Below, piece by piece: positions 19,656-57,993 of a stretch of 64,000 nucleotides of DNA; position 1 is the stretch's first letter, and every line of letters starts with the position of its first letter. A program made the translations under genes and the position numbers. The notes beneath the pieces are model-generated. The model saw only the letters and a list, made by a program, of their open reading frames with translations, ran no database searches and was not told the DNA's origin. Origin of the DNA: an uncultured Chthonomonadaceae bacterium (GTDB lineage: Bacteria; Armatimonadota; Chthonomonadetes; Chthonomonadales; CAJBBX01); contig CAYNFH010000004.1 in the NCBI GenBank assembly GCA_964396385.1, positions 5,008 to 69,007 on the forward strand. The letters are read 5' to 3'.

Positions 19656-20714
19656 TTGCCGATAATGCCCTTGATGGTCATGGTCGGCACGCGAGCCGCC
19701 CCGGCGATGCAGCCGGAGGCGCCCGCGGAGGTCCTTGAAGACGGATCCGCGCGGCCCGCCCTCGTATACACCAATCCGGTTTACGCGCACGATTTTCCGG
19801 ACCCGTTCCTGCAGCACTTCGGAGATCGGTTCTTCGCCTTCGCTACCCAGAGCGCCGGCCACGGATTCCAGGTGATGGAGTCCGCGGATCTCGTGCACTG
19901 GACGCACCTGGGCACCGCGTTTATCCCCCCCTGGTCCTCCAAGCATCTCTGGGCGCCGGAAGTAGTCCGACACCGGGACCGCTTCTACATGACCTACTCC
20001 GCGCTGAACCCGCGCACACGCAAGCACGACATCGGGATAGCGACAGCGAACCACCCGGCCGGCCCGTTCACGCATCGCTCTATCCTGGTGCGCGGTGACG
20101 CCAACCGTTACGGAGTCATAGACGGCACGCTCTTCTTTGAGGACGACGGAACGCCGTACTTGGTCTATTCGGAGGAGAACCCGCGCACCATCGTAATCCG
20201 CCGGCTGACGCCGGACCTCCTTTGCGCCGAAGGCGAGGCCACCATACTGATCCGTCCCGACCGCTGTTGGGAGCGGGGCATCACAGAGGCGCCCACGCTC
20301 ATCCTGAGGAACGGCGTCTACCATCTCTTCTTCTCGGTAGGCTGGTACCAGAGCAGCAAGCAGGAGGCCTGCTATGCCGTCTGCCACGCCTCCGCCTCTT
20401 CTCTGCTCGGGCCGTACCGGAAATCGCCTTCGCCTATTCTCGCGACGGAGCCCGGCGCGGTATATGGCCCCGGCCACCAGTGTCTTATCACCCTGGAGAG
20501 CGGGGAGACCTGGATGGCCTACCACGCATGGGACAACCGCCGCCAGCCCCGCTACGGGTCCAATCCCGCCGGCCGCACGCTGCGTATCGACCGGCTGGTC
20601 TGGAAGGGCCGGCGCCCGGTAGTCTCCGGCCCCACCTTCATGCCCCAGCCCGCCCCCGGCGCAATCCGTTGTACAGTAGAGGTACAGCGAAGCGGCGCCT
20701 TTTCCGTCAAATGA
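19656..20714 (+). CDS. Glycoside hydrolase family 43
   Basis: NPVYAHDFPDPF N-terminal catalytic-Asp motif. Strong paralogue of the 29276-30346 gene at both protein and nucleotide level. Confidence 0.85.
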   Translation: MPIMPLMVMVGTRAAPAMQPEAPAEVLEDGSARPALVYTNPVYAHDFPDPFLQHFGDRFFAFATQSAGHGFQVMESADLVHWTHLGTAFIPPWSSKHLWAPEVVRHRDRFYMTYSALNPRTRKHDIGIATANHPAGPFTHRSILVRGDANRYGVIDGTLFFEDDGTPYLVYSEENPRTIVIRRLTPDLLCAEGEATILIRPDRCWERGITEAPTLILRNGVYHLFFSVGWYQSSKQEACYAVCHASASSLLGPYRKSPSPILATEPGAVYGPGHQCLITLESGETWMAYHAWDNRRQPRYGSNPAGRTLRIDRLVWKGRRPVVSGPTFMPQPAPGAIRCTVEVQRSGAFSVK

Positions 20715-23821: not shown

Positions 23822-25090
23822 ATGGCAAACGTCTACTTGGTGTCTTGCGCCAAGACCAAACGCGACTATCCAACTCGGGCCGACAGGCTCTACGCGTCTC
23901 CGCTGTTTGACAAGAGCCGCGCACTTGCAGCGGCTCGTGCGGACAAGTGGTTCATCCTGTCGGCGAAGTACGGCCTCCTCGACCCGTGTCAGGTGGTAGA
24001 GCCATACGACGAATCGTTGCGACAAATGACAGCACCTGCGCGTCGACTCTGGGCAGAGCGAGTCATGAATGCTCTCAAGCCGCACTTAGGGCCCGGTGAC
24101 ACCGTGACGGTCCTGGCCGGCAGCGCGTACTCCACGCACATCGCGTCATGCCTTAGCCAATTCGGCGTGTCCGTAATCCAACCGCTCGCAGGCCGTTCCC
24201 TGGGCGATCGACTACGATGGCTCAACCTCCAGCTGCTGGATGAGTCGGCTAGCAGCGACCTTAACCGTCTTTACAACTTGCTCGACCGGCTAGCCGAGGG
24301 CGTGGGGGGCCCGAGGTCAGTTGCCCAGGCTCGCGTTGGGGACAAGTGGCCCCGGCGCGGCCTCTACCTGTTCTTCGAACCTGGAGAATACCGCGCGCAC
24401 ACGGACTCGCAATTGAGAATCGTGCGAGTAGGAACTCACGCCGTGAGTACAGGCTCAGTTTCCACCCTCTGGGGCCGGCTCCGTGCCCATAAGGGAACCG
24501 GCGATGGAAACGGAAACCATCGCGGATCCATTTTCCGCTTGCACGTCGGGTCCGCGCTGTTGGCTCGCGGCGACATAGCTCCCTCAGTCCCAACGTGGGG
24601 TGCCGGTCACACCGCGCCCAGATCTGTACGAGAAGCTGAGTCCCATATCGAAAGAAGCGTAACAGAGTATATTGGCGCCATGTCTATTCTGTGGCTTAAC
24701 GTTGACGATGTGCCTGGCCCGGCGAGCGACCGGGCCTACCTTGAGCGGAACATCATCGCACTGGTCAGTAATCGGCAGCAACCGGCCGACCCCCCTAGCG
24801 GGAGCTGGCTAGGCCGATGGAGTCCGTATCATGCCATCAGAGAGAGCGGTTTGTGGAACCTACGCCACACGTTGGATACCTACGACCCCCTCTTTCTCGG
24901 CGTGCTCGAGCTCTACGTACAAGTCACACTGGGCGAGCTCCCTCTGCCGGCCGGCTCCATGGCACCTAGACAGCGTTCCGGCCGTGGCTCCAAGCCGTCT
25001 GACCGCACGTCCGAACCATCACTATTCGACAAGGAGATCCACCCCGATGTCGCTGACAACGAGGGCTACGGTACTCAAGAAGTATCCTAG
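23822..25090 (+). CDS. Two-domain protein: DUF6884/YaaA-like N-terminal module plus a GIY-YIG-like C-terminal module (tentative)
   Basis: N-terminus: VYLVSCAKTK...ILSAKYGLLDPCQVVEPYDESL. C-terminus: RRGLYLFFE...RIVRVGTH...LWGRLRAH...HRGSIFRLHVGSAL. Start could instead be TTG 23777. Confidence 0.6.
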   Translation: MANVYLVSCAKTKRDYPTRADRLYASPLFDKSRALAAARADKWFILSAKYGLLDPCQVVEPYDESLRQMTAPARRLWAERVMNALKPHLGPGDTVTVLAGSAYSTHIASCLSQFGVSVIQPLAGRSLGDRLRWLNLQLLDESASSDLNRLYNLLDRLAEGVGGPRSVAQARVGDKWPRRGLYLFFEPGEYRAHTDSQLRIVRVGTHAVSTGSVSTLWGRLRAHKGTGDGNGNHRGSIFRLHVGSALLARGDIAPSVPTWGAGHTAPRSVREAESHIERSVTEYIGAMSILWLNVDDVPGPASDRAYLERNIIALVSNRQQPADPPSGSWLGRWSPYHAIRESGLWNLRHTLDTYDPLFLGVLELYVQVTLGELPLPAGSMAPRQRSGRGSKPSDRTSEPSLFDKEIHPDVADNEGYGTQEVS

Positions 25091-26657
25091 ACCAGTTCTC
25101 GCAATGCGAGCGGCGAAGCGGAACAACATGCTGGGCCTAATACTTGGTGCCGGTACGAGTAAGGGCTTCAAACTGCCGATGTGGGAGGACCTCCTCGCAA
25201 ACCTCGCAGCCGACCCGAGGGTAAGTGGCAAAGCTGTCTACGATCCGAAGCAAAACGTTACTGCTAGAGCGGAGATGCTATATCGCCACTTCGCGGCTGC
25301 CAAGAGCGCCAGCTATGGAACCTCGGCTATGGATCCGAGAGCGCTCGATCGTCGCATTCGGGGGGAGTGGTTCGAGGTTATCCGGGAGCTCCTGTATGCG
25401 AACCTACCCCCGCCGGACGGCAAGTTCCATCGTGCGCATCCCTATCTGTCGGAATTCCTCGAGATCATCATCCAGTCGCCGCTCACCGTGACATACAACT
25501 TCGACAGCTGCATCGAAATGATGCTCGATGACTACCAGAAGGCGATGGCTCGAACTGAACGCCTCTACGAAGTCATATTTGACACCTACACTCCTTACCA
25601 GCGTCACAACGGCGTTATCTACCACCCGAACGGATTCCTGCCGGCAAATAAGCTTGAGGCGTTCAGCGACTCCATTGTATTCTCAGAAGAGCAGTTCGGC
25701 GACCAACTGCTCGACAGCGTAGCGGGCAGGTATTCGTCGCTGGCACACCACCTATCAAAGCATACGTGCCTGCTCTTGGGCGTCTCATTGAACGACGAGA
25801 CACTCCGCCACCTGCTCCACGCAAATGCTCGGATGAGCCCGGGTCATTACCACTACTGTGTAGAGTACCTGTCGGCGCCCGATGCTATGACGAACGAGGC
25901 GAAGGCAAGCCTATCCGAGTACAGGTTCGACATCTACAACCTCATAACCCTGTTTCTGACTGAGCCCGAAATAAAGGCCCTGGGCCAGTTGTTAACGTGC
26001 GACCTGGAGGCTCTTCGCAATGATGCGGGCCGTGCCAGAATCCCGCTAGTCTGGGTCTACTACATCACGGGCATCCCTGGCACTGGTAAGACCACTGTTT
26101 GCCGCCATTTAGGCGACCTCATCACACTTGGCGAGTGGCTTGAAGCACCGCTCGACCTCCTATCCACCGACTATACTTCTCTGACGAGTCCGGAGCGTGA
26201 GAAGGTAGATGCGTGGGTCGCCAACCAATTTGTGGAGAAGAACATGGCACTCCTAAGTGTACCAGAGGGCGTTATCGTCGTTGATCGCTGCCCACTGGAT
26301 CCACTCGCGTTCGTAGACACTCCCGACAGGCCCGCGAAGGCCTCGGCATACGGGCCACAGTTCCAACGTGGCCAGTCGGACAGGCATCCGGTTGCTGGAA
26401 GTGTCCTTATTCTTACGGCGGATCCGGTGGAGGTTTCGGCCCGGCTGGAACGACGGCAAGGGGAGCGCAAGGACCCTAAGTACCTTGAGAAACTCCAGGT
26501 CAATCACCTTGATATCTATAAGGCTCCCAGGGTCGTGCTCATGGATACGAGGGCACTAACGCTGGACCAACAGATTCGTTCTATCGCGCGTTACATACAT
26601 CGTGAAAAGTACGCGGAGGTCGATATCAGTGCGCGTCTGACGGAGCTGACGCATTGA
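25047..26657 (+). CDS. SIR2-like (SIR2_2-type) domain fused to a deoxynucleoside/NMP-kinase-like P-loop domain
   Basis: SIR2_2 motifs: LILGAGTSKGFKLPMWEDLL, VTYNFDSCIE, VIYHPNGFL, LLLGVSLND. Kinase-like motifs: Walker A GIPGTGKT, VIVVDRCPLD, and lid ARLERRQGERKD. AAGGAG RBS 11 nt before the ATG at 25047. Overlaps the upstream gene by 44 nt. Confidence 0.8.
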   Translation: MSLTTRATVLKKYPRPVLAMRAAKRNNMLGLILGAGTSKGFKLPMWEDLLANLAADPRVSGKAVYDPKQNVTARAEMLYRHFAAAKSASYGTSAMDPRALDRRIRGEWFEVIRELLYANLPPPDGKFHRAHPYLSEFLEIIIQSPLTVTYNFDSCIEMMLDDYQKAMARTERLYEVIFDTYTPYQRHNGVIYHPNGFLPANKLEAFSDSIVFSEEQFGDQLLDSVAGRYSSLAHHLSKHTCLLLGVSLNDETLRHLLHANARMSPGHYHYCVEYLSAPDAMTNEAKASLSEYRFDIYNLITLFLTEPEIKALGQLLTCDLEALRNDAGRARIPLVWVYYITGIPGTGKTTVCRHLGDLITLGEWLEAPLDLLSTDYTSLTSPEREKVDAWVANQFVEKNMALLSVPEGVIVVDRCPLDPLAFVDTPDRPAKASAYGPQFQRGQSDRHPVAGSVLILTADPVEVSARLERRQGERKDPKYLEKLQVNHLDIYKAPRVVLMDTRALTLDQQIRSIARYIHREKYAEVDISARLTELTH

Positions 26658-27154
26658 GCGACCAGCCAGACAAAGCCTCCAGGCACGGCTCCCGCCATCG
26701 AGTGTACCTAGCGGGCCCGCTTTTTAGCCGGGCCGAGCGTGAGTTCAACGGATTTCTGAAGCGGGAGCTTTCAGTTTACTTCGATGTATTCCTACCCCAG
26801 GAGGACGGTTGCCTCTTGGCTGAGATGACACGCAACGGCATTCCTCCCGAACAGGCATCTAGGCGTGTTTTCGAATGCGACATTGCGGAGCTCGACCGAT
26901 GTACGATACTCGTCGTCGTACTAGACGGGCGAGCGGTTGACGAGGGAGCTGCATTCGAACTCGGTTACGCCTTTGCAAAGGGGAAGACGTGCGTTGGCCT
27001 CCAGACTGATGAGCGACGACTCTTACGATGCGGCAACAACCCGATGATAGATGGTCCATGCAGCCGGCTGTTTCATAACGTTGACGCACTGCTGGCATGG
27101 GCGGATCAAGTCAGCACTGTGGGTCTTCAGGCGTATGTCGCCTCGGAGGGATAG
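26654..27154 (+). CDS. Nucleoside 2-deoxyribosyltransferase-like protein
   Basis: RVYLAGPLFS and VVVLDGRAVDEGAAFELGYAFAKGK motifs of the Nuc_deoxyrib_tr fold. The TTG start overlaps the upstream TGA (TTGA). GTG at 26702 is an alternative start. Confidence 0.8.
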   Translation: MSDQPDKASRHGSRHRVYLAGPLFSRAEREFNGFLKRELSVYFDVFLPQEDGCLLAEMTRNGIPPEQASRRVFECDIAELDRCTILVVVLDGRAVDEGAAFELGYAFAKGKTCVGLQTDERRLLRCGNNPMIDGPCSRLFHNVDALLAWADQVSTVGLQAYVASEG

Positions 27155-27167
27155 TAGAGTTCGACAG

Positions 27168-28241
27168 ATGTCCATTGTAGATTCCACAGCTCTCTTTTGG
27201 GAGCACCATTCCGACCTTCTGAATGAGTTCCGAACTTCGCAGCGCAGTTCAGCCGACCCAATTGGCAAGTTGCTCCGCGAGACGTGTAGCTCACCAACCG
27301 CGACGGTCGAGAGAGCCTTTGCCTTGGCGAAAGACATGATCCCCGCGGCTCAAGAGGGGGATTTTCGGGTACTCGAGTCTCTTGGACGCGATACAGTGTG
27401 GACAGCGCTGGTATATATGGAAACTTGGGGGCGTGATGATAAGGTCACTTCAGGAGAATTGGATGGTTCAGAGGAAGTGGATCCACGTCGGAGTCAGTTA
27501 GAGCGGCTCGAAGCGCTAGTCAAAGAGAAAGGCCATGACTACAACTCGGGCGGCGTGCCTATCCTCTCTTACTTCGTTTGGCAGGAGCGGAGCATCGTAC
27601 ACGAGATCCACAAGAGGGCGCAACGTCTTTACTCGATAGATAGAGCAGGTAGCGCGAAATTCGAAGGGGCTGCTTCAACGGCATTCGACCTGTGCTCCTT
27701 CGCACTGTTTCTGCTGGCCTACCTACGGACGTTCGGTCAGGACCCGCTTAACCGCTATACCATCTGCTCCTATGGGTACATCGATGCGATTGTGGGTACT
27801 CTTTGCTACCTCAGGCGCGATGGACTGACGCTTGTGCTGCGCTCCGATGATCGCAGGACCGGAGCCTGTAACGGTCTGGGCGGCAAAGTTGAAGGGGCGG
27901 AGACACCTCGTAGCTGCGCAATGCGCGAGATTGCGGAGGAGTGCGGCCTTCAGGTGACGGACTTGGCACTCAGAGGAATTGTCACAGTTGTTGGTGAGAG
28001 GACATGTCCGTGGCACCTGTTCATATACACAGGGTCGGATTGGGTAGGTGAACCTCGTGAATTGACCAGTCATGGCACTTTGGAATGGGTCCCTGATCAC
28101 GACCTCCCGCAGTTGTCGCTAGGGCAGGGTGACCGCTACTTCCTAGAGCGGTTGGATATGCTTGGTTGGTTCGAGGGAGTATTGGAGTACAGGGATGGGG
28201 CATTGGTCCGGCACGACTTCGTCCAGCACGGCGACGGATAA
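27168..28241 (+). CDS. All-alpha MazG/DUF1599-like domain (tentative) fused to a NUDIX hydrolase
   Basis: Nudix box GKVEGAETPRSCAMREIAEECGL fits G-x5-E-x7-REUxEExGU. N-terminal KGHDYNSG...HEIHKRAQRLYSI...AFDLCSFALFLLAY resembles DUF1599. ATG 27135 is an alternative start. Confidence 0.75.
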   Translation: MSIVDSTALFWEHHSDLLNEFRTSQRSSADPIGKLLRETCSSPTATVERAFALAKDMIPAAQEGDFRVLESLGRDTVWTALVYMETWGRDDKVTSGELDGSEEVDPRRSQLERLEALVKEKGHDYNSGGVPILSYFVWQERSIVHEIHKRAQRLYSIDRAGSAKFEGAASTAFDLCSFALFLLAYLRTFGQDPLNRYTICSYGYIDAIVGTLCYLRRDGLTLVLRSDDRRTGACNGLGGKVEGAETPRSCAMREIAEECGLQVTDLALRGIVTVVGERTCPWHLFIYTGSDWVGEPRELTSHGTLEWVPDHDLPQLSLGQGDRYFLERLDMLGWFEGVLEYRDGALVRHDFVQHGDG

Positions 28242-28386: not shown

Positions 28387-29244
28387 TTGCTCGCGCTGCA
28401 CATCACTCAGGATGAAATAGACGCCCGGACAATTCGGCCGGACCACCTGCAAGCCGCTGTCAAGGCGGTCCGGCAGGATGGGCTGGTGGTGCTCAACAAT
28501 GTGGTTGCAGAGGAGCACCTGGATCTGCTGCACGCACGGATGGTGGAGGACCTGGAGCTCCTCCAAAGCCGGCCGGACGCGCCGTTCAACTGGAACACCG
28601 GCAACATTCAGCAGGACCCGCCCCCCTTCCCGCCCTTCCTGTTCCGTGACGTGCTCGTGAACGATGTGGTGGTGGCTGTCACCCAGGCCATCCTGGGTAA
28701 GGGTGTGAAGAACGCGTACTACAGCGGCAACACCGCGCTTAACAGCACGGAGCGGCAGCCCGTCCACGTGGATACGGGCCAGCTATGGGCCAACCTGGCG
28801 GTGGCGCACCCCGCCTTCGGCCTGGTGGTTAACGTGCCGACCGTGGACATGACCGCGGAGAACGGCAGCACCGAGATATGGCCCGGGACGCACCTGGACA
28901 CAACCATCTCCGTCCATGACGAGCTGGAGCTACCTGCAGGGAAAGTGGAGCGCAGGCGCGCGGAGGCCCCGCCCATCCAGCCCACCGTCCGCCGCGGTGC
29001 CGCCCTCATCCGGGACCTCCGGCTCTGGCACGCAGGCATGCCCAACCGTACCACCACGCCGCGGCCCATGATCGCCATGATCCACTACGCCCGCTGGATG
29101 GACACGGGCACGCCGCTGCGGTTCCCGGCCGGCACGGAGCCGATCTTTGCGGACAGCCCGCTAAGGACCTGCGCCCGCTTCGTAGACGAGCCTATCGACT
29201 ACATCCGCGCGCCGCAGGCGTACAAGTACGGGGTTGAAGGTTGA
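28387..29244 (+). CDS. Phytanoyl-CoA dioxygenase (PhyH) family oxygenase
   Basis: HVDTG...TEIWPGTH...LWHAGMPN pattern. TTG start behind a TGAGGAGG RBS. Confidence 0.8.
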   Translation: MLALHITQDEIDARTIRPDHLQAAVKAVRQDGLVVLNNVVAEEHLDLLHARMVEDLELLQSRPDAPFNWNTGNIQQDPPPFPPFLFRDVLVNDVVVAVTQAILGKGVKNAYYSGNTALNSTERQPVHVDTGQLWANLAVAHPAFGLVVNVPTVDMTAENGSTEIWPGTHLDTTISVHDELELPAGKVERRRAEAPPIQPTVRRGAALIRDLRLWHAGMPNRTTTPRPMIAMIHYARWMDTGTPLRFPAGTEPIFADSPLRTCARFVDEPIDYIRAPQAYKYGVEG

Positions 29245-29275
29245 AGGACTTAGGGATAGATCAGAAGTAGGACGT

Positions 29276-30346
29276 ATGAGATACGCAACTCGGATAGGTC
29301 TAGTCATCCTATTGGGCTTAGGCGGGACTGTTGTCCCGTGGGTCCGTGTTCCGGCGCACGCGGGGCGTGCGGGGGCGGCCCGCACCTACACGAACCCGGT
29401 GTGGAACCACGATTTCCCGGATCCGTTTCTCCTGGAGTACGGGGGCCGGTTCTATGCGTACGCTACCCAGACCAACGGCTATGGCTACCAGGTGATGGAG
29501 TCGCCGGACATGGTCCGCTGGACCCATCGGGGCACGGCCTACATCCCGCCATGGTCCAGGGAGCACCTGTGGGCGCCGGAGGTGGTGCACTACCGCGGCC
29601 GGTTCTACCTGATCCACTCGGCGCGCAACCCGCAGAGCGGCCGGCACGACATCGGCATCGCTACCTCGGAGAGCCCGCTCGGCCCGTTCATGTACGGCGC
29701 CATCCTGGTGCGCGCGGACGAGAAGGTGGGCGGCTGCATCGACGCGGACATCTTCTTCGATAGGGACGGCACGCCCTATCTCACGTACTCGGAGGAGCAC
29801 CCGCGGCGCATCGTAGTGCGCAGGATGGCCCCGGACCTGATGTCGGTGGATTCGGAGGTGACGGAGCTGGTCCGCCCAGACCGGCCGTGGGAGCGCGGCG
29901 TCACAGAGGCGCCCACACTCATCCTGCGGAACGGCGTCTACCATCTCTTCTTCTCCGTGGGGTGGTACCAGAGCAACAAGAAGGACGCCTGCTACGCCGT
30001 CTGTCACGCCAGCAGCCGCTCCGTGCGGGGACCATTCGTGAAGGACCCGGACCCCATCCTCGCGACCGTGCCGGAGAAGGTGTACGGCCCCGGCCACCAG
30101 TGCGTAATCCGGCTTCCGAGCGGAGAGTGGTGGATGGGCTACCACGGCTGGGACAACCAGAACGAGCCGATGTACGGCTCCAACCCCATCGGCCGCTCCC
30201 TGCGCATCGACCGGATGGAGTGGCATCGCGACTCCCCCCGCGTTCTGGGCCCCACCACCACGCCACAGCCCGCCCCCAACCTCCGCGGCCTCCGCATGAA
30301 TCCCATACGGACCGAGCAAAGGAGCCACGCCCATGCCGGACGGTAG
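29276..30346 (+). CDS. Glycoside hydrolase family 43 (secreted paralogue)
   Basis: Signal peptide plus NPVWNHDFPDPF. High nucleotide identity to the 19656-20714 gene over the TEAPTLILRNGVYHLFFSVGWYQS region. Confidence 0.85.
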   Translation: MRYATRIGLVILLGLGGTVVPWVRVPAHAGRAGAARTYTNPVWNHDFPDPFLLEYGGRFYAYATQTNGYGYQVMESPDMVRWTHRGTAYIPPWSREHLWAPEVVHYRGRFYLIHSARNPQSGRHDIGIATSESPLGPFMYGAILVRADEKVGGCIDADIFFDRDGTPYLTYSEEHPRRIVVRRMAPDLMSVDSEVTELVRPDRPWERGVTEAPTLILRNGVYHLFFSVGWYQSNKKDACYAVCHASSRSVRGPFVKDPDPILATVPEKVYGPGHQCVIRLPSGEWWMGYHGWDNQNEPMYGSNPIGRSLRIDRMEWHRDSPRVLGPTTTPQPAPNLRGLRMNPIRTEQRSHAHAGR

Positions 30347-33464: not shown

Positions 33465-34252
33465 AGCGGCTCGCTTTCGCGGCGTACTCGCTGGCGTGCC
33501 TGAGTGCGCTGGCGGTGCCGGTACGGGCGCTTGGCTATGTGGCATCCTTGCCTCAGCGGCACCTCATACCCCTCTGGACAGTCCTCTGGTGGCTGGCGGC
33601 CATCGCCGCGCCGCTTGGAGCCGTGTTGGGCGGCTTGTGCGCACTGCTGCGCTCGGAGAGCGGGCGACGGATTCCGCACCCGCGGGCTACGGCGGCTATC
33701 GTGGTGGGCGGATTCAGCGCGCTCATCATGCCGTACATGATTCGGTATGTGGACGAAGCGCGGGGCATCCTCTACGACAATTCCGGACGGAAGGCAGCCT
33801 GTTTCAGCAATTTGAGGCAGGTGGGTCTCGCCGTGTCGATGTACGCTCAGGACTACGACCGACAGCTTCCCTTCGCAGCGAGTTGGCACGACGCCGTCTA
33901 TCCATACCTCAAGAACGAGTATGTCTTTCAATGTCCATCTGCAGAGGACCAAACGCAGTCGTCGTATGGACTCAATCGGCGCATCACCGGCCTGCACCTG
34001 CCCGACTTGAGCAATCCAGTTGAGGCCGTGATGGATTTCGACTCCATTCCGGGCAGGAACCAAGCTGGCGGAGTGGAGCTGCTGCCCGAACCGCCGCGCC
34101 ACGTGGATGGGGAGAATATCGGGTTCATCGACGGTCACGTGAAGTTCACGGCTGAGGGTCGAATCCCTAGTCTGGAGTGGCGACCAACACTTCTGACTAC
34201 CGGCGCACCGGAGCATGGAGATCGAAGAGGTCGAAGAGTTCGGTCTCGGTGA
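33461..34252 (+). CDS. Membrane protein with a DUF1559-like (H-X9-DG) C-terminal domain
   Basis: GTG start overlaps the upstream TGA. Three TM segments, then NLRQVGLAVSMYAQDYD and HVDGENIGFIDGHV. Confidence 0.6.
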   Translation: MKRLAFAAYSLACLSALAVPVRALGYVASLPQRHLIPLWTVLWWLAAIAAPLGAVLGGLCALLRSESGRRIPHPRATAAIVVGGFSALIMPYMIRYVDEARGILYDNSGRKAACFSNLRQVGLAVSMYAQDYDRQLPFAASWHDAVYPYLKNEYVFQCPSAEDQTQSSYGLNRRITGLHLPDLSNPVEAVMDFDSIPGRNQAGGVELLPEPPRHVDGENIGFIDGHVKFTAEGRIPSLEWRPTLLTTGAPEHGDRRGRRVRSR

Positions 34253-35846
34253 GGGCGGTGGAGAGATCGAGGGTGGCATCGTCCACCACCTCCTGGAAGA
34301 TGCGGCGCTTCTCGCGCAGCTTGGCGTCGATACGCTCCTCGATGGTATTCGCGCAGACGTATCGATAGACGGTAACCGGGCGCTCCTGACCCAACCGGTG
34401 CGCCCGGCCCTCCGCTTGGTCCTCCACCGCGGGATTCCACCAGCGGTCCAGGTGGAAGACGTAGGACGCGGCCTGCAGGTTGAGGCCGTACCCTCCTGCC
34501 CTCAACGAGAGCAGAAGCGCCCTGTGCTCCGGATGGGAGAGAAAGAGATCCACTACCCGGGTACGCTCCCGGAGGCTCATCTTGCCGGTAAACAGGAGCG
34601 GCTTGAACTCTGCCAGGCAGGCCGCTGCCCGCTCCAGCCCGAACGTGGCGTCCACGAACTGAGAGAAGACAAGCGCCTTCTGGCCCTCCTGCTCCAGCAG
34701 CCGCAGCCTTTCGGAGATATCGGCCAGCTTCCCGGATTCGCCGGTGGCCGGATCGAAGTTGCAGAGCTGCTTGAGTCGCGCGATGAGCTCGAGCACATGG
34801 ACGATGTTGACGGCGCCCTCCGCCCTGCGGAGCCGAACGATCCCCTCCTGCTCGGCCAGTTCGTACGCCGCCCTCTGCCCGGCCGGAAGCTCAATAACCA
34901 CCTCGTTGATCCGCTTGCGCGGCAGTTCCGGCAGCACGTCCTCCATCCGCCGTCGGAGCTGGACGGAATGCAGACGGGCGCGAACCTGTGCCGGCTCGGA
35001 GGAAGTCGAGGGCTCCTGCCAGTCTGGCAGCAGAAAGGCGAGCAGCGAAGCCACGTCCTCCAGACTGTTCTCCAGTGGAGTACCCGTGAGCGCCCACCGG
35101 CGCGAGGCCGGGACTCGCCGGCAGGCTACGGAGACCGCCGCGTGTCGGTTCTTGATGCGCGAAGCCTCATCCAGAATCAGAACGCTCCATGGCGCACGCA
35201 TGGCCGGGCTGTCCCGCACCTCCATCACGTCTGACCGGACCGTCTCATAACCGGCCAGCCGCACGTGTGCCGGCACGCGCCAGAGGTGGCCGCGCTCAGC
35301 CGGATCACCGGATACCATCGCCACCCGCAGGTCCGGCGCCCACCGCGCTAACTCTCGCCGCCACTGGGGCAGGAGCGACGCCGGACATACGATCAGAGCC
35401 GATTCCGCCTCCTGCCGGTGGAACAGGATGCGCAGCGCGGCGATGGTCTGGACGGTCTTGCCGAGACCCATCGAGTCCGCAAGGAGCAGGGCGGACCGGG
35501 TGAGAAGCGCCAGGACCCCTTCTCGCTGGTATGGCAGCAGCGGTGCGGGCCATTCCAGCACGCCATTGGGCGTTGCGAGCGAGGTGACGGGACACTGCAG
35601 CGCTGCAGCCAGCCTCCGCAGGAGGTCGGCGGCCTCCGAAAGCGGCGGCTTGTCCCCTAAGCCTTCCTCGCCCTCTCCGTTAGCGGAGTCCAAGGCGTCG
35701 CTCAGCGCATCGAAATCAAACCAGCCGATGGTGTGCCGCAGGGCGCGGCCCATGCTCCAGGTGGGCGGTTCGACGCGGCCTGCTTCTGCCAGGCGGAAGG
35801 CACCAACCGGCTCCCGCCGTGCGATGCCAACGCTAAAGGGTGTCAT
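34197..35846 (-). CDS. SNF2-family helicase (compact, 549 aa)
   Basis: LLPYQREGV, DSMGLGKTVQ (motif I), LILDEASRIKN (motif II), LVFSQF, and RAHRLGQERPVTVYRYV (motif VI). Confidence 0.9.
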   Translation of the reverse strand: MTPFSVGIARREPVGAFRLAEAGRVEPPTWSMGRALRHTIGWFDFDALSDALDSANGEGEEGLGDKPPLSEAADLLRRLAAALQCPVTSLATPNGVLEWPAPLLPYQREGVLALLTRSALLLADSMGLGKTVQTIAALRILFHRQEAESALIVCPASLLPQWRRELARWAPDLRVAMVSGDPAERGHLWRVPAHVRLAGYETVRSDVMEVRDSPAMRAPWSVLILDEASRIKNRHAAVSVACRRVPASRRWALTGTPLENSLEDVASLLAFLLPDWQEPSTSSEPAQVRARLHSVQLRRRMEDVLPELPRKRINEVVIELPAGQRAAYELAEQEGIVRLRRAEGAVNIVHVLELIARLKQLCNFDPATGESGKLADISERLRLLEQEGQKALVFSQFVDATFGLERAAACLAEFKPLLFTGKMSLRERTRVVDLFLSHPEHRALLLSLRAGGYGLNLQAASYVFHLDRWWNPAVEDQAEGRAHRLGQERPVTVYRYVCANTIEERIDAKLREKRRIFQEVVDDATLDLSTALTETELFDLFDLHAPVRR

Positions 35847-35852
35847 TGAGTC

Positions 35853-35878
35853 TCAGGTGTTCAGGTGTTCAGGTGTTG
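35853..35878. repeat. Tandem octamer TCAGGTGT x3
   Basis: Lies between the SNF2 start and the upstream gene's stop. Same GGTGTTCAGG word as the hairpin at 36498-36549. Confidence 0.8.
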
Positions 35879-35938
35879 GGGACCAGTCACCTACGGAGTC
35901 CGTGCCTACATCGCCATAGATATGCCGCCATGCAGCAT

Positions 35939-36484
35939 TCACGTCCATTCGCGTTCATTCGCGGCCAACGACTCCCAGCTTGTTTGTGGATAGACCAGCC
36001 TCAGAGCCTGTAGCAGTCGCTCGAACGGCTCTGTGATGAAACCGCGGCGAGCGAGCTCATGCGCGAGGATGGCGGCCTTCATGCCCGAGGAAGGCGGATC
36101 GTTCACCCAGGCCCATTCGGCCGGTATCCCCTCCCGCGGCGGGACCACCTGTACGCACGGGATAGAAGGGGCGATCTCCGTCCGGCAGTACTCCGCCGAG
36201 CCCAGAGACGGTAAGCAGACCAGGAGGTCCGGCTCGCGGCGGCAGGCATCGAACAGGGAGTGAGTGAGGAGGGTAGTCCCCATGGGACGGACCTTCTCCT
36301 CCGGCCAGAGCAGTCCGGCCGGAGCGGCCAGGGTGTTGTGAACGAATTCCTGGGGCTGCCCCTTACCGTCGATGATCAGCAGACCGCCATAGAAGGAGCG
36401 GTCCGGCGGCAGCCATCGTACGTTCAGGTATGCCGCCAGGCCGTATTCCGCCGCCCGCGGCGTCTTGCGGTAGGGGACAGGCAT
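35939..36484 (-). CDS. Hypothetical protein (181 aa) within the SNF2/ATPase cassette
   Basis: Co-directional ORF with ordinary composition. No motif recognised. Bracketed by GGTGTTCAGG-type repeats. Confidence 0.6.
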   Translation of the reverse strand: MPVPYRKTPRAAEYGLAAYLNVRWLPPDRSFYGGLLIIDGKGQPQEFVHNTLAAPAGLLWPEEKVRPMGTTLLTHSLFDACRREPDLLVCLPSLGSAEYCRTEIAPSIPCVQVVPPREGIPAEWAWVNDPPSSGMKAAILAHELARRGFITEPFERLLQALRLVYPQTSWESLAANEREWT

Positions 36485-36497
36485 GGGTGAAAACCTG

Positions 36498-36549
36498 GGT
36501 GTTCAGGCGCTCGGACCCGAATACAGGAATACCTGAATACCTGAACACC
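36498..36549. repeat. Intergenic hairpin repeat (GGTGTTCAGG / CCTGAACACC arms)
   Basis: GGTGTTCAGG ... ATACCTGA ATACCTGA ACACC. The complementary arms flank an approximately 30-nt centre. Confidence 0.8.
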
Positions 36550-36552
36550 GTC

Positions 36553-37776
36553 CTATTCCTTGGCGTCCTCTTCCTCCGCGATGATGTCTGCGTCTGTAAT
36601 CTTGGTGGGGTCGAAGTGAACGTCTTCGACCTCTACGTCCGGGCGGTACTCCGGGTAGTAACGGTGTAGGTCCCATCGCGTGATCCATCCCCGAATCTCG
36701 GAGCGTATCGAGGTGCGGACATCGGCATGGCTCTCCGGGAGGGTGGGGACGGCGATGCCGTAAGCCTGCTCGTAGATCGCCTTGATCCGGTACTTTACCT
36801 CCTCCTCCTGCTCTCTGGTGGGCGATTCCAGCCGGTATGGGCTCTTCAGCATCTCGATACCGTAGAGCGCGCGACGGTCCCGCTCGTCCGCCGCAAAGCC
36901 GGAAGTGGCAAGCCGCTCCTCGTCGCGTGTGCCGCCGGTCACCGATTCCGCCACGAATCCGCTGGCGGTAGTGAACACCGGCAGCAGCGCGCTGCCGGTC
37001 TGCTCCGCCGCCTCACGCCACCAGCCAAGCTCGGAATAGGCCGCGAGGCGCTGGTTGAGCGAGAACTTGGCCACGCGCTCCATCTCATCGAACAAGATCA
37101 CCCAGCCCTTGCAGCCCGCCGCGCGGAAGATCTGGGCCAGGAGCCGGATGCGGTCATGGGCGAGAAGCCGGCTCGGAGGTCCCGCCAGGTCGTATGCCGC
37201 AGCCTGGCTGATCTGTTTGAGCCGGTTCTTGATGATGTTGCGGATTATTCCCCGGCCTTCGAAGTCGTTCAGGATCTGGAGGCGCAGCTCCTCATCGGCG
37301 CGGAATGCTTCGTAGATGTGCAGGAGAGCTCGGAAGCGGTCGTCTATACTCGCCGTGCGCGTCCACTCCTGCAGCGCGCGGTACTCCTCGGAATCGGTGC
37401 GCAGTGTGGACGCCAGCGCCCGAAGTGCCTTGCCGGCCTGCCCCGGGGCATGCGCCGCATCGGCTAAGGCCTTGACCACAAGCTGACCGTTGCCCAGCGG
37501 CATTTCCGGACTTATCACCACATAGCTGGTAACGAATCCCTCTCGCTCCGCAAGGATCTGGAGGTAGTTCAACAGGTGCGTCTTGCCCGCCCCGAAAGTG
37601 GCAGAGATAACGATGGGATTTGCGCCTCGGCCCTCCGCCAGGTTGTCCAGCTCGTCCTCGAATCGCTCCCGCACGTCATGCTGGGTGGTGCCAAGCTGCG
37701 CCGCCGCGTCGCGGCTGGGCACACCGGACCGTAGCGATTCCACCGCGCTACGCGCCATGACCGCATCCGGGCTCAT
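36553..37776 (-). CDS. BrxD/DUF2791-like P-loop ATPase
   Basis: N-terminal AVESLRSGVPSRD, Walker A ISATFGAGKTHLLNYL, and Walker B GWVILFDEMERV. The layout is as I remember for PF10923 (BrxC_BrxD). Its ATG overlaps the upstream stop by 4 nt. Confidence 0.75.
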   Translation of the reverse strand: MSPDAVMARSAVESLRSGVPSRDAAAQLGTTQHDVRERFEDELDNLAEGRGANPIVISATFGAGKTHLLNYLQILAEREGFVTSYVVISPEMPLGNGQLVVKALADAAHAPGQAGKALRALASTLRTDSEEYRALQEWTRTASIDDRFRALLHIYEAFRADEELRLQILNDFEGRGIIRNIIKNRLKQISQAAAYDLAGPPSRLLAHDRIRLLAQIFRAAGCKGWVILFDEMERVAKFSLNQRLAAYSELGWWREAAEQTGSALLPVFTTASGFVAESVTGGTRDEERLATSGFAADERDRRALYGIEMLKSPYRLESPTREQEEEVKYRIKAIYEQAYGIAVPTLPESHADVRTSIRSEIRGWITRWDLHRYYPEYRPDVEVEDVHFDPTKITDADIIAEEEDAKE

Positions 37777-38885
37777 GCCGAGTCCTCCAGGAAGACCAGC
37801 GACGCCGCCCGATTGGCGAACTGCACGTCATGCACCTCCTGCCCGATGCGCGTCTGTAAGGCGTCGTAGTCGAAATAGCAGCGCTTCACGCTCGGATCGA
37901 GAGTCTTGTCGCGGTAGAAGTCGGGAGTGGTGAGGATCACCAGCTGGAACCGCTCGAACCGGTCGATCTCGTCGATGAAGCGGCGGACCATGGTAAGCAT
38001 CTGCATGTAGGCCGCGTCGCTATATGTGACGTCGGGCTCGCTGGACGCATCTTCCGCCGCCAGCCGCGCCAGCTCATCCGCGCTCGCTCCGCGGGCCAGC
38101 GCCTCCCTGACAAGCTGAAGCTGCTCCGCCTGTCGCTTGCCTCGGCCCACCCTCTTATACTCGTACGGCCGGAAGTCGAACGTGACTACCAGGCCCGCGT
38201 GACCGGAGTGCGGCAACCATCGGCAGAAGGAAGCCAGCATGGATCGGGCGTTGCCGAGATTGATCCTCTCATAGATCAGGACCTTCTTGAGAGCGGATGC
38301 CGCTCCGGGCATGGTCCGGCCGTGGAACCAGCCCAACAGCACCTCTTCCGTGGTCGGCGTTACGGCATCCGGAATGAGCTGCGCGCGTCCGAGCGCCGTG
38401 ATGGCGGTACGGAACTCGATGGAGAGGCGCGGATCCCGGAGCTGCGGGGTGGCGAGCTGCTGCTGATACTGGTTAAGGAGGTCCTGCGGCTCACGTCCAT
38501 TGTCGCGCGCGATGCGGTCCAGATCATTCAGAGCACGCCCCTCCGCCAGGTGAATGCCCTGAGATTGCAGGTAATGACGCGCCTGCACTCCCGCCCACGC
38601 GCGCCAGTCAACGTCCCGCGTGACCGCGAAGTAAAAGCGGTCGATGCGGTGGTAGTCCGGCCGTTTGCCCTCCGGTGTTCGCTGTGCCGGGTCCAGGTGC
38701 GCGTGGTAGTAGCCGCCGTTCCGGGCCATCTGGGCGACCGTCTCGGCCGCCCGCTCCGGAAGGTCTCCCTCACCGGTGATTACCTTGACGGCGGAGCCTC
38801 CGGAGCGCACGTAGTCGGCGAGGTACTCGCAGTCCAGCACCTCTGTCCAGGCACCCAGCGGAACGCGCGGCACGATATCACCCAT
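37773..38885 (-). CDS. Hypothetical protein, apparently a P-loop-less paralogue of the adjacent ATPase
   Basis: SGGSAVKVITGEGDLPE sits where the neighbour has GRGANPIVISATFGAGKT. AGLVVTFDFRPYEY sits where the neighbour has GWVILFDEMERV. Translationally coupled to the ATPase gene. Confidence 0.6.
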   Translation of the reverse strand: MGDIVPRVPLGAWTEVLDCEYLADYVRSGGSAVKVITGEGDLPERAAETVAQMARNGGYYHAHLDPAQRTPEGKRPDYHRIDRFYFAVTRDVDWRAWAGVQARHYLQSQGIHLAEGRALNDLDRIARDNGREPQDLLNQYQQQLATPQLRDPRLSIEFRTAITALGRAQLIPDAVTPTTEEVLLGWFHGRTMPGAASALKKVLIYERINLGNARSMLASFCRWLPHSGHAGLVVTFDFRPYEYKRVGRGKRQAEQLQLVREALARGASADELARLAAEDASSEPDVTYSDAAYMQMLTMVRRFIDEIDRFERFQLVILTTPDFYRDKTLDPSVKRCYFDYDALQTRIGQEVHDVQFANRAASLVFLEDSA

Positions 38886-38902
38886 GCGCCTTGTTACCCC
38901 TT

Positions 38903-39661
38903 CTATTTGAACCAGATGGCGTAGTAGCGGATGGGCCGGCCGTCTTCGGAGCTGACCTGGAATACGTCCCGCTCCTTGGCGTTGCCGGACGGGTACTCTA
39001 TCTCAAACGTGCGGCCGCCGCGCGTTGCCCGCAGGCCTGAGCGGTGCAGGGCATATATCTGCTGGGCGAATGCCATCGGAGGGTTCTCCCGCTTGTATCC
39101 CGGAGAGAGGCAGAACAGATCGTAGATGTCGCGGAATTTGGCGAACGGCCGCTCCTTGCCGCCCAGGTACTGGCAGGCGCCCAAGAGGCTCTCCAGGAAT
39201 TCCTGTGAGTTGGCGGCGGCGGTGCGGTTCCGCAGCCGCTTGAGTTCCTCGGCGGCTACGCTGGGCCGGATGAAGGGCCAGGAGAGCTTTCCCAGCAGAA
39301 GCACGCCTCGGGCGGGCTGCGCGCGAACCGTAACCGGCGAGGAGATGAGGGTGTCGTCTTCCGCGACCGTCCGGAGGCCGAACCGCTCGGAGGCGGTCTG
39401 CTGGAGCTCCTGCCGCCAGGCGTCGCCTTCCAGGTAGGTGCGAGAGTCAAACTCCCAGGCTTGCCGGGCGTCTCTCGTGGTTTGCGGCAGAGCGCCGCCT
39501 AGCTCCTCCGCTTGCGCCGCGGCCTTCTGCATGTTACCGAGGTGGCCGTGGTGGCAGGCTTTCTTCCAGGCTTTGAGCGCGCTGACGTACTTCCCGGCCG
39601 CCTTGACCAGCCCGTCCACACGCTCCTCCTGCTCCTGCAGCGCCTCCTCCAAGCTCAACAT
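38903..39661 (-). CDS. Hypothetical protein (252 aa), first gene of the cassette
   Basis: ATG 39659-39661 behind an AGGAGG RBS. The longer 385-aa ORF would run through the opposite-strand gene at 39758-40066. Confidence 0.6.
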   Translation of the reverse strand: MLSLEEALQEQEERVDGLVKAAGKYVSALKAWKKACHHGHLGNMQKAAAQAEELGGALPQTTRDARQAWEFDSRTYLEGDAWRQELQQTASERFGLRTVAEDDTLISSPVTVRAQPARGVLLLGKLSWPFIRPSVAAEELKRLRNRTAAANSQEFLESLLGACQYLGGKERPFAKFRDIYDLFCLSPGYKRENPPMAFAQQIYALHRSGLRATRGGRTFEIEYPSGNAKERDVFQVSSEDGRPIRYYAIWFK

Positions 39662-39753
39662 AGCACCTCCTGGTACTTTGCCCCATTCTACCCGCTTAGT
39701 GCGTGCCCTTCCCAGGAACCTCGCGCTCTCAGTGCCAACCTGTCGGCCAACGG

Positions 39754-39759
39754 TATAAT
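39754..39759 (+). promoter_or_regulatory. Possible -10 box (TATAAT) for the HEPN-module operon
   Basis: Perfect TATAAT with no good -35. If it is used, the transcript would start near ATG 39767, giving a leaderless mRNA. Confidence 0.25.
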
Positions 39760-40066
39760 GATGAGCATGAAAACGCTGGCCGATTCTCTGATTGGTGGAT
39801 TGACTGAGTCCAAGGAACTCGAACGTGTCTTGCGGGAGCGTGTTGGAGCGTCCATCCAAGTTGCAGATTGGGTGGTCGGCGAAGGTACCGATGCGGGGGG
39901 CGACAGGGCCATCTGGGTTTACGGCCTGCTGAGTGACCCCGACACTTCCTTCGAGATCACGGCCAATGTTCGCAAGGAAGTACGGGCTGTTATCCAAGAC
40001 GCTTTGGGCAGCGATGCCCCCTGGGTCTACGTGCGCTTCACCGATGCCGCTGAAGTTCACGGTTAA
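39758..40066 (+). CDS. Small hypothetical protein (about 100 aa), upstream partner of the HEPN-like protein
   Basis: TAATG stop/start overlap with the next gene. The start may be ATG 39758, 39761 or 39767. Confidence 0.5.
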   Translation: MMSMKTLADSLIGGLTESKELERVLRERVGASIQVADWVVGEGTDAGGDRAIWVYGLLSDPDTSFEITANVRKEVRAVIQDALGSDAPWVYVRFTDAAEVHG

Positions 40067-56626: not shown

Positions 56627-57301
56627 TCAGGGGATCCCGATGAGCTTGTGCGTCTGCACGCTCAGGCGCCAGCGCGGATGCGCCAGACAGTACCGGATGG
56701 CGAGCCGCGTGTTCTCCGCCAGGTGGGGACCGTCCATAGGCTGCAGGTACCAACGCTGGAAGTCCAGGTGCTCAAAACGCTCCGGCGCCGCGCCCTCTTG
56801 CGGGTAGACGAGCTTCAGCTCGCTGCCGCGCTCCACCACCAGGGGCGCCCCCGCCTTGGGGCTCACCGTAAGCCAGTCGATTCCGACCGGCGCGGGGCGC
56901 GTGCCGTTGGTCTCGACCGCCACCTCTAAGCCATGGGCGTGGAAGGCCGCTATCAGCTCTTCGTCCAACTGGAGCAGCGGCTCACCGCCGGTGCAGACCA
57001 CGAAGGGCACGGAGGACGGAGAACGGAGGACGGAGGACGGAGTGCCGGTTCTGTGGTCGCTGGCCGGCCATTTCTGAGCAACGGCGGCCGCCAGCGAATC
57101 CGCGCTCCGGAACCTGCCGCCGCCGGGGCCGTTGGCGCCCACAAAATCCGTGTCGCAGAACTGGCAGATGGCGCGCCCGCGGTCCTCCTCGCGCCCTGTC
57201 CACAGGTTGCAGCCCGCAAACCGGCAGAACACCGCCGGGCGGCCCGCGTGGGCGCCCTCTCCCTGCAGCGTATAGTAGATCTCCTTTACGCTGTAGGTCA
57301 T
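56627..57301 (-). CDS. queE: 7-carboxy-7-deazaguanine synthase (Burkholderia-type radical SAM)
   Basis: [34 protein letters not shown]...CQFCDTDF and [15 protein letters not shown] overlap with queC. Contains an in-frame heptamer insert. Confidence 0.9.
57011..57045. repeat. GGAGGAC-type heptamer run inside queE
   Basis: GGAGGAC GGAGAAC GGAGGAC GGAGGAC GGAGTGC on the plus strand. Encodes ...[14 protein letters not shown]... on the minus strand. Confidence 0.85.
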
Positions 57302-57993
57302 CTGTGCGCGCGGTATCGCGTGGGGTCGGCTACGCCTGCTTCCTGAAAGCCTTTCCGGCGCAGGAGGCAGGAGTCGCACTCTCCGCACGCCTTCCCGGTG
57401 GGTGAGGGATCATAGCAGCTCAGCGTGGCGGCGTAGTCCACGCCGAGCTCGGTGCCCTTGCCGATGATCTGTGCCTTGGTGAGGTGGATGAGCGGCGTGT
57501 GGATCTTGATCCGCTGCGTTCCCTCTACGGCCGCCTTCGTCGCACGGTTGGCCATCTTCTCGTAGGCTTCGATGTACTCCGGCCGGCAGTCCGGGTAGCC
57601 TGAGAAGTCGAGGCTGTTTACGCCGATGTAGATGTCGCTGGCGCCCAGCACCTCCGCCCAGGCGAGCGCGAAGGAGAGGAAGATCGTGTTGCGGGCGGGC
57701 ACATAGGTGACGGGGATCCCCTCGCCCATCTCCTGCGCGCTTCGACCCTTCGGAACCGCGATATCCGCCGTAAGCGCCGACCCGCCGAACTGCCGGAGGT
57801 CCATATCCAGTACCACGTGCTCTGCAGCCCCGAGCTGGCGCGCGATACGCCGCGCCGCCTCCAGCTCCACCTGGTGCCGCTGCCCGTATTGGAAGCTCAG
57901 CGCGTAGGCGGCGTAGCCCTCGCTCCGGGCAATCGCCAGCACGGTGGCGGAATCCAGCCCACCGCTTAGAAGAACCACCGCCCTTCCGTTCAT
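57298..57993 (-). CDS. queC: 7-cyano-7-deazaguanine synthase
   Basis: [28 protein letters not shown] and CGECDSC motifs. First gene of the que operon. Confidence 0.9.

Follow-up and report, generated by a model that had tools for sequence, protein, structure and literature searches.

A mobile cassette pairing a SIR2-kinase fusion protein with a nucleoside 2'-deoxyribosyltransferase: a candidate nucleotide-controlled immune system

The window analysed here is a stretch of 64,000 nucleotides from an uncultured Chthonomonadaceae bacterium (Armatimonadota; GenBank assembly GCA_964396385.1, contig CAYNFH010000004.1, positions 5,008 to 69,007), and it holds a gene for a protein in which a SIR2 domain is fused to a kinase-like P-loop domain (SIR2-kinase). 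The gene is the core of a conserved multi-gene cassette, a point missed by an earlier note on the same DNA, which had dealt with the fusion protein. Its downstream partner is a nucleoside 2'-deoxyribosyltransferase (NDT), and upstream lie genes for a DUF6884/PDC-M57B protein and for a second QueC (Table 1). Bacterial immunity relies on SIR2 NADases as one of its main effector classes, and for each of them the mode of activation is the key question. Here, the combination of a fused kinase-type domain and a deoxyribosyltransferase points to control by a nucleotide which the system would itself build from a free base.

Table 1. Genes and domains of the SIR2-kinase island and the housekeeping QueC of the window (positions in the window; aa, amino acids).
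Feature	Position	Strand	Basis or remark
Cassette QueC paralogue, 236 aa	23011..23721	+	Pfam QueC 171.9 bits; canonical catalytic signature
DUF6884 (YaaA/DpdC-like) N-domain and PDC-M57B C-domain, 437 aa	23777..25090	+	overlaps SIR2-kinase start by 44 nt
SIR2-kinase fusion gene, 536 aa	25047..26657	+	invariant cassette core; Pfam, AlphaFold2, homologues
SIR2_2 domain, aa 1 to ~330	25047..26036	+	GAGxS NAD loop, N151/D153/H193
Deoxynucleoside/dTMP-kinase-like P-loop domain, aa ~335-536	26049..26654	+	G342-T349, E363-W364, D413-R414, lid R466
Type II NDT, 166 aa	26654..27154	+	start overlaps SIR2-kinase stop by 4 nt
MutT/MTH1-like NUDIX protein, N-half without family	27051..28241	+	same low-GC island; start codon uncertain
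Housekeeping QueC	57298-57993	-	PF06508, 265 bits

The translated SIR2-kinase frame contains every motif that the earlier note had quoted, namely GLILGAGTS (aa 30-38), TVTYNFD (147-153) and YHPNGF (192-197) in the SIR2 half, and GIPGTGKT (342-349), VIVVDRCPLD (409-418) and ARLERRQGERKD (464-475) in the kinase half. The ATG at 25047 is preceded, 10 nt upstream, by AAGGAG and yields an N-terminus that aligns with the homologues; a longer open reading frame (ORF) from the ATG at 24831 was rejected as the gene because the ribosome-binding site and the homologue N-termini fit the downstream start. Among 30 homologues of 32-48% identity, residues G34, G36, N151, D153, H193, G342, G347, K348, E363, W364, R414, D418 and R466 are invariant and D413 is 90% conserved, and since the key residues persist at such divergence the motifs are not a product of chance. 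An AlphaFold2 model with 30 homologues as input reached a mean pLDDT of 90.1 and a pTM of 0.90. The proposed fusion of SIR2 with a small-molecule kinase was borne out for both domains by Pfam, Foldseek and profile searches. No strong match to the SIR2-kinase exists in PADLOC v2, where the best models were TRIP13 (22 bits) and ThsA (15.8 bits).

The SIR2 call stands well above the threshold of the family, with Pfam SIR2_2 (PF13289) matching aa 147-291 at E 1.3e-14 and 54.9 bits against a gathering score of 24.5. The N and H landmarks, which had been read from the TYNFD and YHPNGF motifs, are N151 and H193, both invariant together with D153, so that by residue conservation the predicted catalytic N/D/H set is intact. 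Searched against the PDB with Foldseek, the model retrieved as its top matches ThsA (8bto, 4.7e-10), DSR2 (8k9a, 1e-9) and KomC (9v0g, 2.6e-9, with 9v12 likewise among the top matches), and the E-values of the SIR2 domain against the ThsA/DSR2/KomC fold ranged from 4.7e-10 to 1e-8. Judged by sequence and model, the subtype is that of the defence NADases and not that of the CobB deacetylases, and NAD+ glycohydrolase activity is predicted for it.

The C-terminal domain folds in the model as a five-stranded P-loop kinase of about 200 residues which fits structures of deoxynucleoside kinases (dNKs) and dTMP kinases, both in Foldseek searches of viral structures (BFVD) and in profile searches of the PDB. 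The top BFVD matches were dNK, dCK, dGK and dTMP kinases (TM(target) 0.54-0.73, alignments of ~190-230 columns), and they come from the kinase domain, not from the SIR2 domain. With the kinase-domain profile, the leading PDB entries were all small-molecule kinases: an AK6/Fap7-like adenylate kinase (4cvn, 1e-4), the prophage protein YorR (2axp, 2e-4), shikimate kinase and dNKs. With Pfam, aa 338-478 matched AAA_18 at 36.3 bits against a cut-off of 29.4 and AAA_28 at 28.4 bits against one of 27. Over 20 members of the family, AAA_28 matched the domain in 17 and AAA_18 in 14, while dNK (PF01712) matched three (best E 3e-4) and did not reach its threshold; one further homologue scored 19.4 bits against the 27-bit cut-off of the same model. 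Because most members match AAA_28 or AAA_18 and not the dNK model, the domain is best classed, on sequence, as a separate family of the dNK/dTMP-kinase fold. The earlier kinase-like call thus holds, and a generic AAA+/STAND ATPase, which had been named as its alternative, was rejected, as PDB profile, Pfam and Foldseek all point to small-molecule kinases. In Pfam, AAA_22 and AAA_16 stayed below cut-off and nSTAND3 appeared in one of the 20 members (E 0.009); the size of the domain, only ~200 aa in the model, likewise speaks against AAA+/STAND.

The kinase signature is complete, comprising the P-loop GxxGxGK[ST], an acidic residue after strand 2, a DR pair after strand 3 and an arginine-rich lid. 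E363-W364 lies just past strand 2, R414 (after D413) ends strand 3 and R466 sits in the lid. In the alignment of 30 homologues the catalytic-type residues (G342, G347, K348, E363, R414, R466) are retained without exception; their putative catalytic roles are assigned from dNK enzymology. In dNKs, the sugar 5'-OH is activated by a conserved acidic residue that follows strand 2 and serves as the base, and the position of E363 suggests by analogy that the acceptor may be a nucleoside rather than a nucleoside monophosphate.

A profile of the kinase domain alone, searched against 1.84 billion representative proteins, returned 484 clusters, of which 213 reach E<=1e-30. The best 150 of these 484 were nearly all SIR2 fusions of ~540 aa or their fragments, and for this reason the subfamily seems to occur essentially only on SIR2; the same result led us to reject the domain as a promiscuous sensor shared by many effectors. 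A 401-aa metagenome protein (P0300), which joins a member of this kinase subfamily to a glycosyltransferase family 2 domain, was the only checked protein with another N-terminal partner and may represent either a true variant or an assembly chimera. The proposal that a phosphorylated nucleoside could be produced or sensed by the kinase-like module is strengthened by the near-obligatory presence of a deoxyribosyltransferase partner.

This partner matches Pfam Nuc_deoxyrib_tr (PF05014) at 7.6e-20 (71.6 bits) and has no PADLOC match. Its profile retrieved from the PDB, over the full length and at E 9e-59, DpNDT of Desulfotalea psychrophila (7O62), which is 47% identical to the window protein. DpNDT is a tetrameric type II NDT that transfers deoxyribose, acting on deoxy- and not on ribonucleosides, and according to its authors it catalyses poorly with canonical bases (PMC12372993). 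The catalytic residues of DpNDT, Tyr16, Asp74, Asp94, Glu100, Asn127 and Met129 (PMC12372993), correspond to Y18, D76, D96, E102, N129 and M131 of the window NDT, all invariant or nearly so in 32 partner proteins. By sequence, the window NDT is thus placed in the same subfamily as a proven deoxyribosyltransferase. DpNDT itself was rejected as a member of a SIR2-kinase operon, being a solo gene in Desulfotalea, and no SIR2-kinase was found near it in the locus of strain LSv54 (L107). In that locus, ~6 kb before the gene (L107:1516-7595) hold no same-strand ORF of at least 100 aa and no called genes, and probably represent an rRNA operon.

The organisation of the cassette was derived from 80 loci, compared by tblastn with the neighbour proteins of the window and by clustering every ORF de novo. 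Directly after the SIR2-kinase, 73 of the 80 carry an NDT-family gene; the DUF6884/PDC-M57 gene directly precedes the SIR2-kinase in 46 and is lacking in 34, and a QueC gene stands upstream of the latter in 27. No conserved neighbour cluster beyond these three emerged from the ORF clustering. In 65 of 66 pairs the NDT frame begins within 26 nt of the SIR2-kinase stop or overlaps it, and overlaps of 4 nt are annotated by RefSeq in Rhizobium and Eleftheria plasmids. The RefSeq labels for the pair are 'SIR2 family protein' and 'nucleoside 2-deoxyribosyltransferase'. From these counts and the tight spacing, the minimal unit is judged to be SIR2-kinase plus NDT (~30 loci), with DUF6884/M57 and then QueC as optional additions. 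Modules are also exchanged or joined. DUF6884 is attached directly to the SIR2-kinase in one protein (P0355), and in a Nitrospira metagenome-assembled genome (MAG; L030:2508-4682) DUF6884/M57B carries at its N-terminus a 5'-3' exonuclease of the Pol I type (FEN). A PD-(D/E)XK gene follows the NDT in seven loci, and in a cassette of a Clostridia MAG that has no QueC, a Vut_1/YhhQ gene lies between NDT and DUF6884/M57B (L057:699-1427). In one variant (P0032), a lone gene among toxin-antitoxin genes, the SIR2-kinase carries a C-terminal type I phosphoribosyltransferase (PRTase) and no NDT lies nearby. Since a PRTase here stands in for the NDT, domain composition argues that the partner's task may be to attach a free base to (deoxy)ribose and not to hydrolyse NAD+.

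The last point bears on a reading modelled closely on Thoeris, in which deazapurines have no part. The NDT-fold protein would be the infection sensor and signal generator, as a counterpart of ThsB, the kinase-like domain would be a ligand sensor only, as a counterpart of SLOG, and QueC and DUF6884 would be optional. Such a scheme would account for the ~30 loci with the two-gene core alone and for a SIR2 fold that is nearest to ThsA, and in retron systems NDT-like proteins do serve as effectors that consume NAD+ (PMC13276650). Nevertheless, we consider it rather unlikely: the NDT groups with a proven deoxyribosyltransferase and has lost none of the transferase catalytic residues, its replacement by a PRTase fits base-to-nucleotide synthesis better than NAD chemistry, and the kinase domain likewise retains its catalytic residues and is, in the best 150 profile matches, almost never found on other effectors.

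The base that might be used is suggested by the upstream genes. The cassette QueC is, on sequence grounds, a second, system-specific paralogue, because a better-scoring QueC is encoded elsewhere in the window (Table 1). Cassette QueCs are 51-58% identical among themselves and 35% identical to the housekeeping copy, and they retain the SGGxDS loop, YxQxHxxE, xPxRN, YPDC and the Cys cluster, motifs which define the canonical synthase of preQ0 (7-cyano-7-deazaguanine) (PMC13082051). YhhQ, the family of the gene in the QueC-less Clostridia cassette, comprises preQ0 transporters, and dpd islands also harbour yhhQ as well as duplicates of preQ0 genes (PMC5699537). The protein encoded between QueC and SIR2-kinase matches Pfam DUF6884 at 1.6e-42 and the PADLOC models PDC-M57B at 1.3e-82 and PDC-M57A at 1.3e-34 (AlphaFold2 model pLDDT 86.6). 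DUF6884 is distantly related to YaaA (PMC11701544); 25 of 35 of its members match the YaaA Pfam family and its profile matches YaaA 5caj at E 0.004. DpdC, an enzyme that turns preQ0 in DNA into ADG, belongs in turn to DUF328/YaaA (bioRxiv 10.1101/2025.10.09.681413). For the PDC-M57B domain no Pfam match at E<=1 and no Foldseek PDB match at E<=1e-3 was obtained. Its beta-beta-alpha-alpha-alpha-beta-alpha order, with a three-stranded sheet flanked by helices, and its GxY...RVG...R..H...E..N pattern are compatible with GIY-YIG nucleases; hhalign against GIY-YIG domains from related genomes gave a probability of 7.5% and a PDB profile search lent no support to GIY-YIG, which thus stays a motif-level suggestion and not an assignment.

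These genes could instead belong to a Dpd-like modification and restriction system, where NDT and kinase would feed 2'-deoxy-preQ0 nucleotides into the dNTP pool and so place 7-deazaguanine in host DNA, the DUF6884/nuclease-like protein would tell modified from unmodified DNA or process the one as against the other, and SIR2 would be a regulator or back-up effector. The kinship of DUF6884 with DpdC/YaaA (PMC11701544; bioRxiv 10.1101/2025.10.09.681413), the duplicated preQ0 genes and yhhQ of dpd clusters (PMC5699537) and the nucleic-acid enzymes that join the cassette (the exonuclease fusion of L030, PD-(D/E)XK in seven loci) speak in its favour. We think it unlikely all the same. No tRNA-guanine transglycosylase (TGT) was found among the scanned genes of the window, and neither TGT/DpdA nor any further conserved partner was found in the 80 loci. 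Pool-based modification would mark replicating phage DNA too, DUF6884 is lacking in 34 of 80 loci, and a nuclease assignment for M57B is unsupported by hidden Markov models, by hhalign or by Foldseek. The intact NADase-type SIR2 would moreover be left without an obvious role.

SIR2-kinase genes are widely but sporadically distributed. A word-seeded search gave at least 166 full-length homologues, whose names, where one was given, include 'SIR2 family protein', 'hypothetical protein', 'dephospho-CoA kinase' and 'broad-specificity NMP kinase', and relatives were present in 247 of ~185,000 species scanned at one genome per species. The hosts include Alpha-, Beta-, Gamma- and Zetaproteobacteria, Desulfobacterota, Actinomycetota, Bacteroidota, Planctomycetota, Verrucomicrobiota, Acidobacteriota, Nitrospirota, Chloroflexota, Bacillota, Elusimicrobiota and Armatimonadota, as well as Asgard and Bathyarchaeota MAGs. 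Among 41 genomes of the same family or order, including the present one (35 of 41 at least 90% complete), the gene was not found in the 40 others. In the window, GC content drops from 0.64-0.70 to 0.54-0.62 over 23.0-28.5 kb, which is the span of five co-directional genes. Two of 72,556 plasmid records carry the SIR2-kinase; none of 50,697 phage records does, and a phage origin was rejected on this count. Directly beside the 80 loci lie, among others, four integrases, IS66, IrrE/HTH pairs, AbiEii-like ATPases and FRG domains, and PADLOC matches in the flanks include LmuB, RmrA, PDC-S15, MADS proteins, CapP, AriA and HamB. Because of the sporadic spread, the lack of a match in 40 relatives, the GC dip and the mobile or defence-type flanks, the gene is regarded as accessory and as spread by horizontal transfer.

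This pattern is hard to reconcile with a purely metabolic role, in which the cassette would salvage or make a deoxynucleoside or deoxynucleotide of a 7-deazapurine or of some other base and SIR2 would be a protein deacylase or regulator. QueC, NDT and kinase do add up to a coherent route from base to nucleotide, another QueC-like cluster, linked with PfkB-NDT fusions, has been read as purine salvage (PMC13082051), and a queuosine-salvage gene flanks one locus. Against this stand the transfer-driven, sporadic distribution, with no match found in relatives and a location in a low-GC island, contexts that are mobile or defence-like, an upstream gene that is a PADLOC defence candidate, and a SIR2_2 subtype of the defence NADases and not of CobB. 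We therefore regard a non-defensive role as very doubtful.

Downstream of the NDT, the low-GC island also encodes a NUDIX protein (Pfam NUDIX 7.3e-13, PADLOC PDC-S07 3.6e-10), whose C-terminal half matches MutT/MTH1-type non-canonical NTP pyrophosphatases in the PDB and whose N-terminal ~240 aa match no family. It was rejected as a cassette component, since a counterpart occurs in none of the 80 loci, and is taken as a locus-specific addition. Some 6 kb downstream of the island, an SNF2 helicase (PADLOC ZorD 2e-66, DpdE 9e-65) and, next to it, two BrxD-like ATPases (34197-40060, minus strand) make up a second defence-like cassette. GH43 paralogues lie on either side of the island region (19656-20714 and 29234-30346, both on the plus strand); we rejected a description of the two as 'nearly identical' brackets, as they share 73% nucleotide identity over 885 nt, and with so low an identity the pair is neither a recent duplication nor an obvious recombination scar.

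Taken as a whole, the cassette appears to be an uncharacterised form of nucleotide-controlled abortive infection through SIR2, itself a known kind of defence. In the reading that we tentatively prefer, with confidence somewhat short of even, the NDT and the fused kinase would build a deoxynucleotide that controls the SIR2 NADase, by analogy with Kongming and Thoeris. The NDT would transfer 2'-deoxyribose from a cellular deoxynucleoside to a free base, which in the extended cassettes would be preQ0 supplied by the QueC paralogue or by import. The fused kinase domain would then phosphorylate, or at least bind, the resulting non-canonical deoxynucleoside or deoxynucleotide, and this ligand event would switch on the SIR2 domain, whose depletion of NAD+ would abort phage infection. 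The DUF6884/PDC-M57 protein, with its DpdC/YaaA-like base-binding fold and possibly nuclease-like domain, may be a further sensor or effector, directed at nucleic acids. Established by the analysis or by earlier work are the identities of the domains, their intact catalytic residues, the linkage of the genes, the exchange of modules, the horizontal spread and deoxyribosyl transfer by an NDT homologue of 47% identity. In the proposed chain the NADase and kinase activities, preQ0 as the base, the logic of activation and the anti-phage role are all predictions.

Several observations weigh against this preferred account. About 30 of the 80 loci consist of the SIR2-kinase/NDT pair alone, with neither QueC nor DUF6884, and for that reason a universal use of preQ0 as the base is not demonstrable. 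The solo position of DpNDT in Desulfotalea means that the NDT subfamily is not exclusive to the cassette. The retained catalytic residues of the kinase hint, on sequence, at turnover and not at sensing alone, and if synthesis were constitutive the route would call for a gate that the scheme leaves unexplained. The PRTase variant would yield a ribonucleoside monophosphate and so need no nucleoside kinase, which fits better with 'binding' than with 'phosphorylating'. Many flanks of the 80 loci are housekeeping genes, the enrichment of defence genes having been judged qualitatively only.

A more specific and speculative proposal, which we rate as improbable though worth stating, is that dPreQ0 (2'-deoxy-preQ0) mono- or triphosphate, made on demand from preQ0 by the NDT and the SIR2-fused kinase, would serve as a bacterial immune second messenger that activates both the NADase and the DUF6884-linked nucleic-acid effector. 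If true, it would be the second base-modified nucleotide signal after the dITP of Kongming and the first signalling role of a deazapurine. The roles known so far for the 7-deazaguanine pathway lie in modifying tRNA and DNA and in QatC/Cap9. The recurrent association with preQ0 supply would tie this queuosine/7-deazaguanine pathway to immune signalling or to TGT-independent deazapurine nucleotides, and a family spread over 247 species, many phyla and some archaea is large enough for a general mechanism.

We found no description of the SIR2-kinase/NDT pair or of the cassette in the literature, and its relation to described systems is one of partial likeness. The window NDT shares subfamily and catalytic residues with DpNDT; the latter, however, is encoded without an adjacent SIR2-kinase and has been studied only as a biocatalyst. 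The cassette offers this enzyme a biological context. Both models of the PADLOC candidate PDC-M57 (A, which is DUF6884, and B) are strongly matched by the upstream gene, here as one fused protein, but they cover that protein only, the SIR2-kinase matching PADLOC models weakly and the NDT not at all. With the Dpd island the cassette shares a dedicated QueC paralogue or yhhQ in the cluster and a DpdC-like domain of the YaaA/DUF328 superfamily (PMC5699537); it has neither DpdA (TGT) nor DpdB nor the DpdD-K helicase/nuclease set, whereas Dpd lacks SIR2, kinase and NDT.

The two-gene core resembles that of Thoeris (ThsA, a SIR2-SLOG protein, with ThsB, a TIR protein) in that a SIR2 effector is fused to a nucleotide-binding domain and the partner is again a small enzyme of flavodoxin-like fold, and ThsA is the top structural match. 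In contrast to Thoeris, no TIR or SLOG was detected in the cassette by Pfam, PADLOC or neighbour clustering, the low ThsA score in PADLOC being in line with this, and the partner is a bona fide member of the deoxyribosyltransferase family. Kongming (KomA, a deaminase; KomB, a HAM1-like NTP pyrophosphatase; KomC, a SIR2 protein) has a SIR2 NADase of the same structural class, likewise coupled to enzymes of nucleotide metabolism with a kinase step in the pathway (PMC13454610; bioRxiv 10.1101/2024.12.20.629578). There, the base-modified deoxynucleotide dITP activates the KomBC SIR2 filament (PMC13454610; bioRxiv 10.1101/2024.12.20.629578). The present cassette differs in having NDT, DUF6884/M57B and QueC as conserved neighbours in place of a deaminase or HAM1-like subunit. 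Moreover, its kinase is built into the SIR2 protein, whereas that of Kongming is supplied by the phage, and its base-modifying step would be that of a deoxyribosyltransferase (or PRTase), the implied base being a 7-deazaguanine instead of the hypoxanthine of Kongming.

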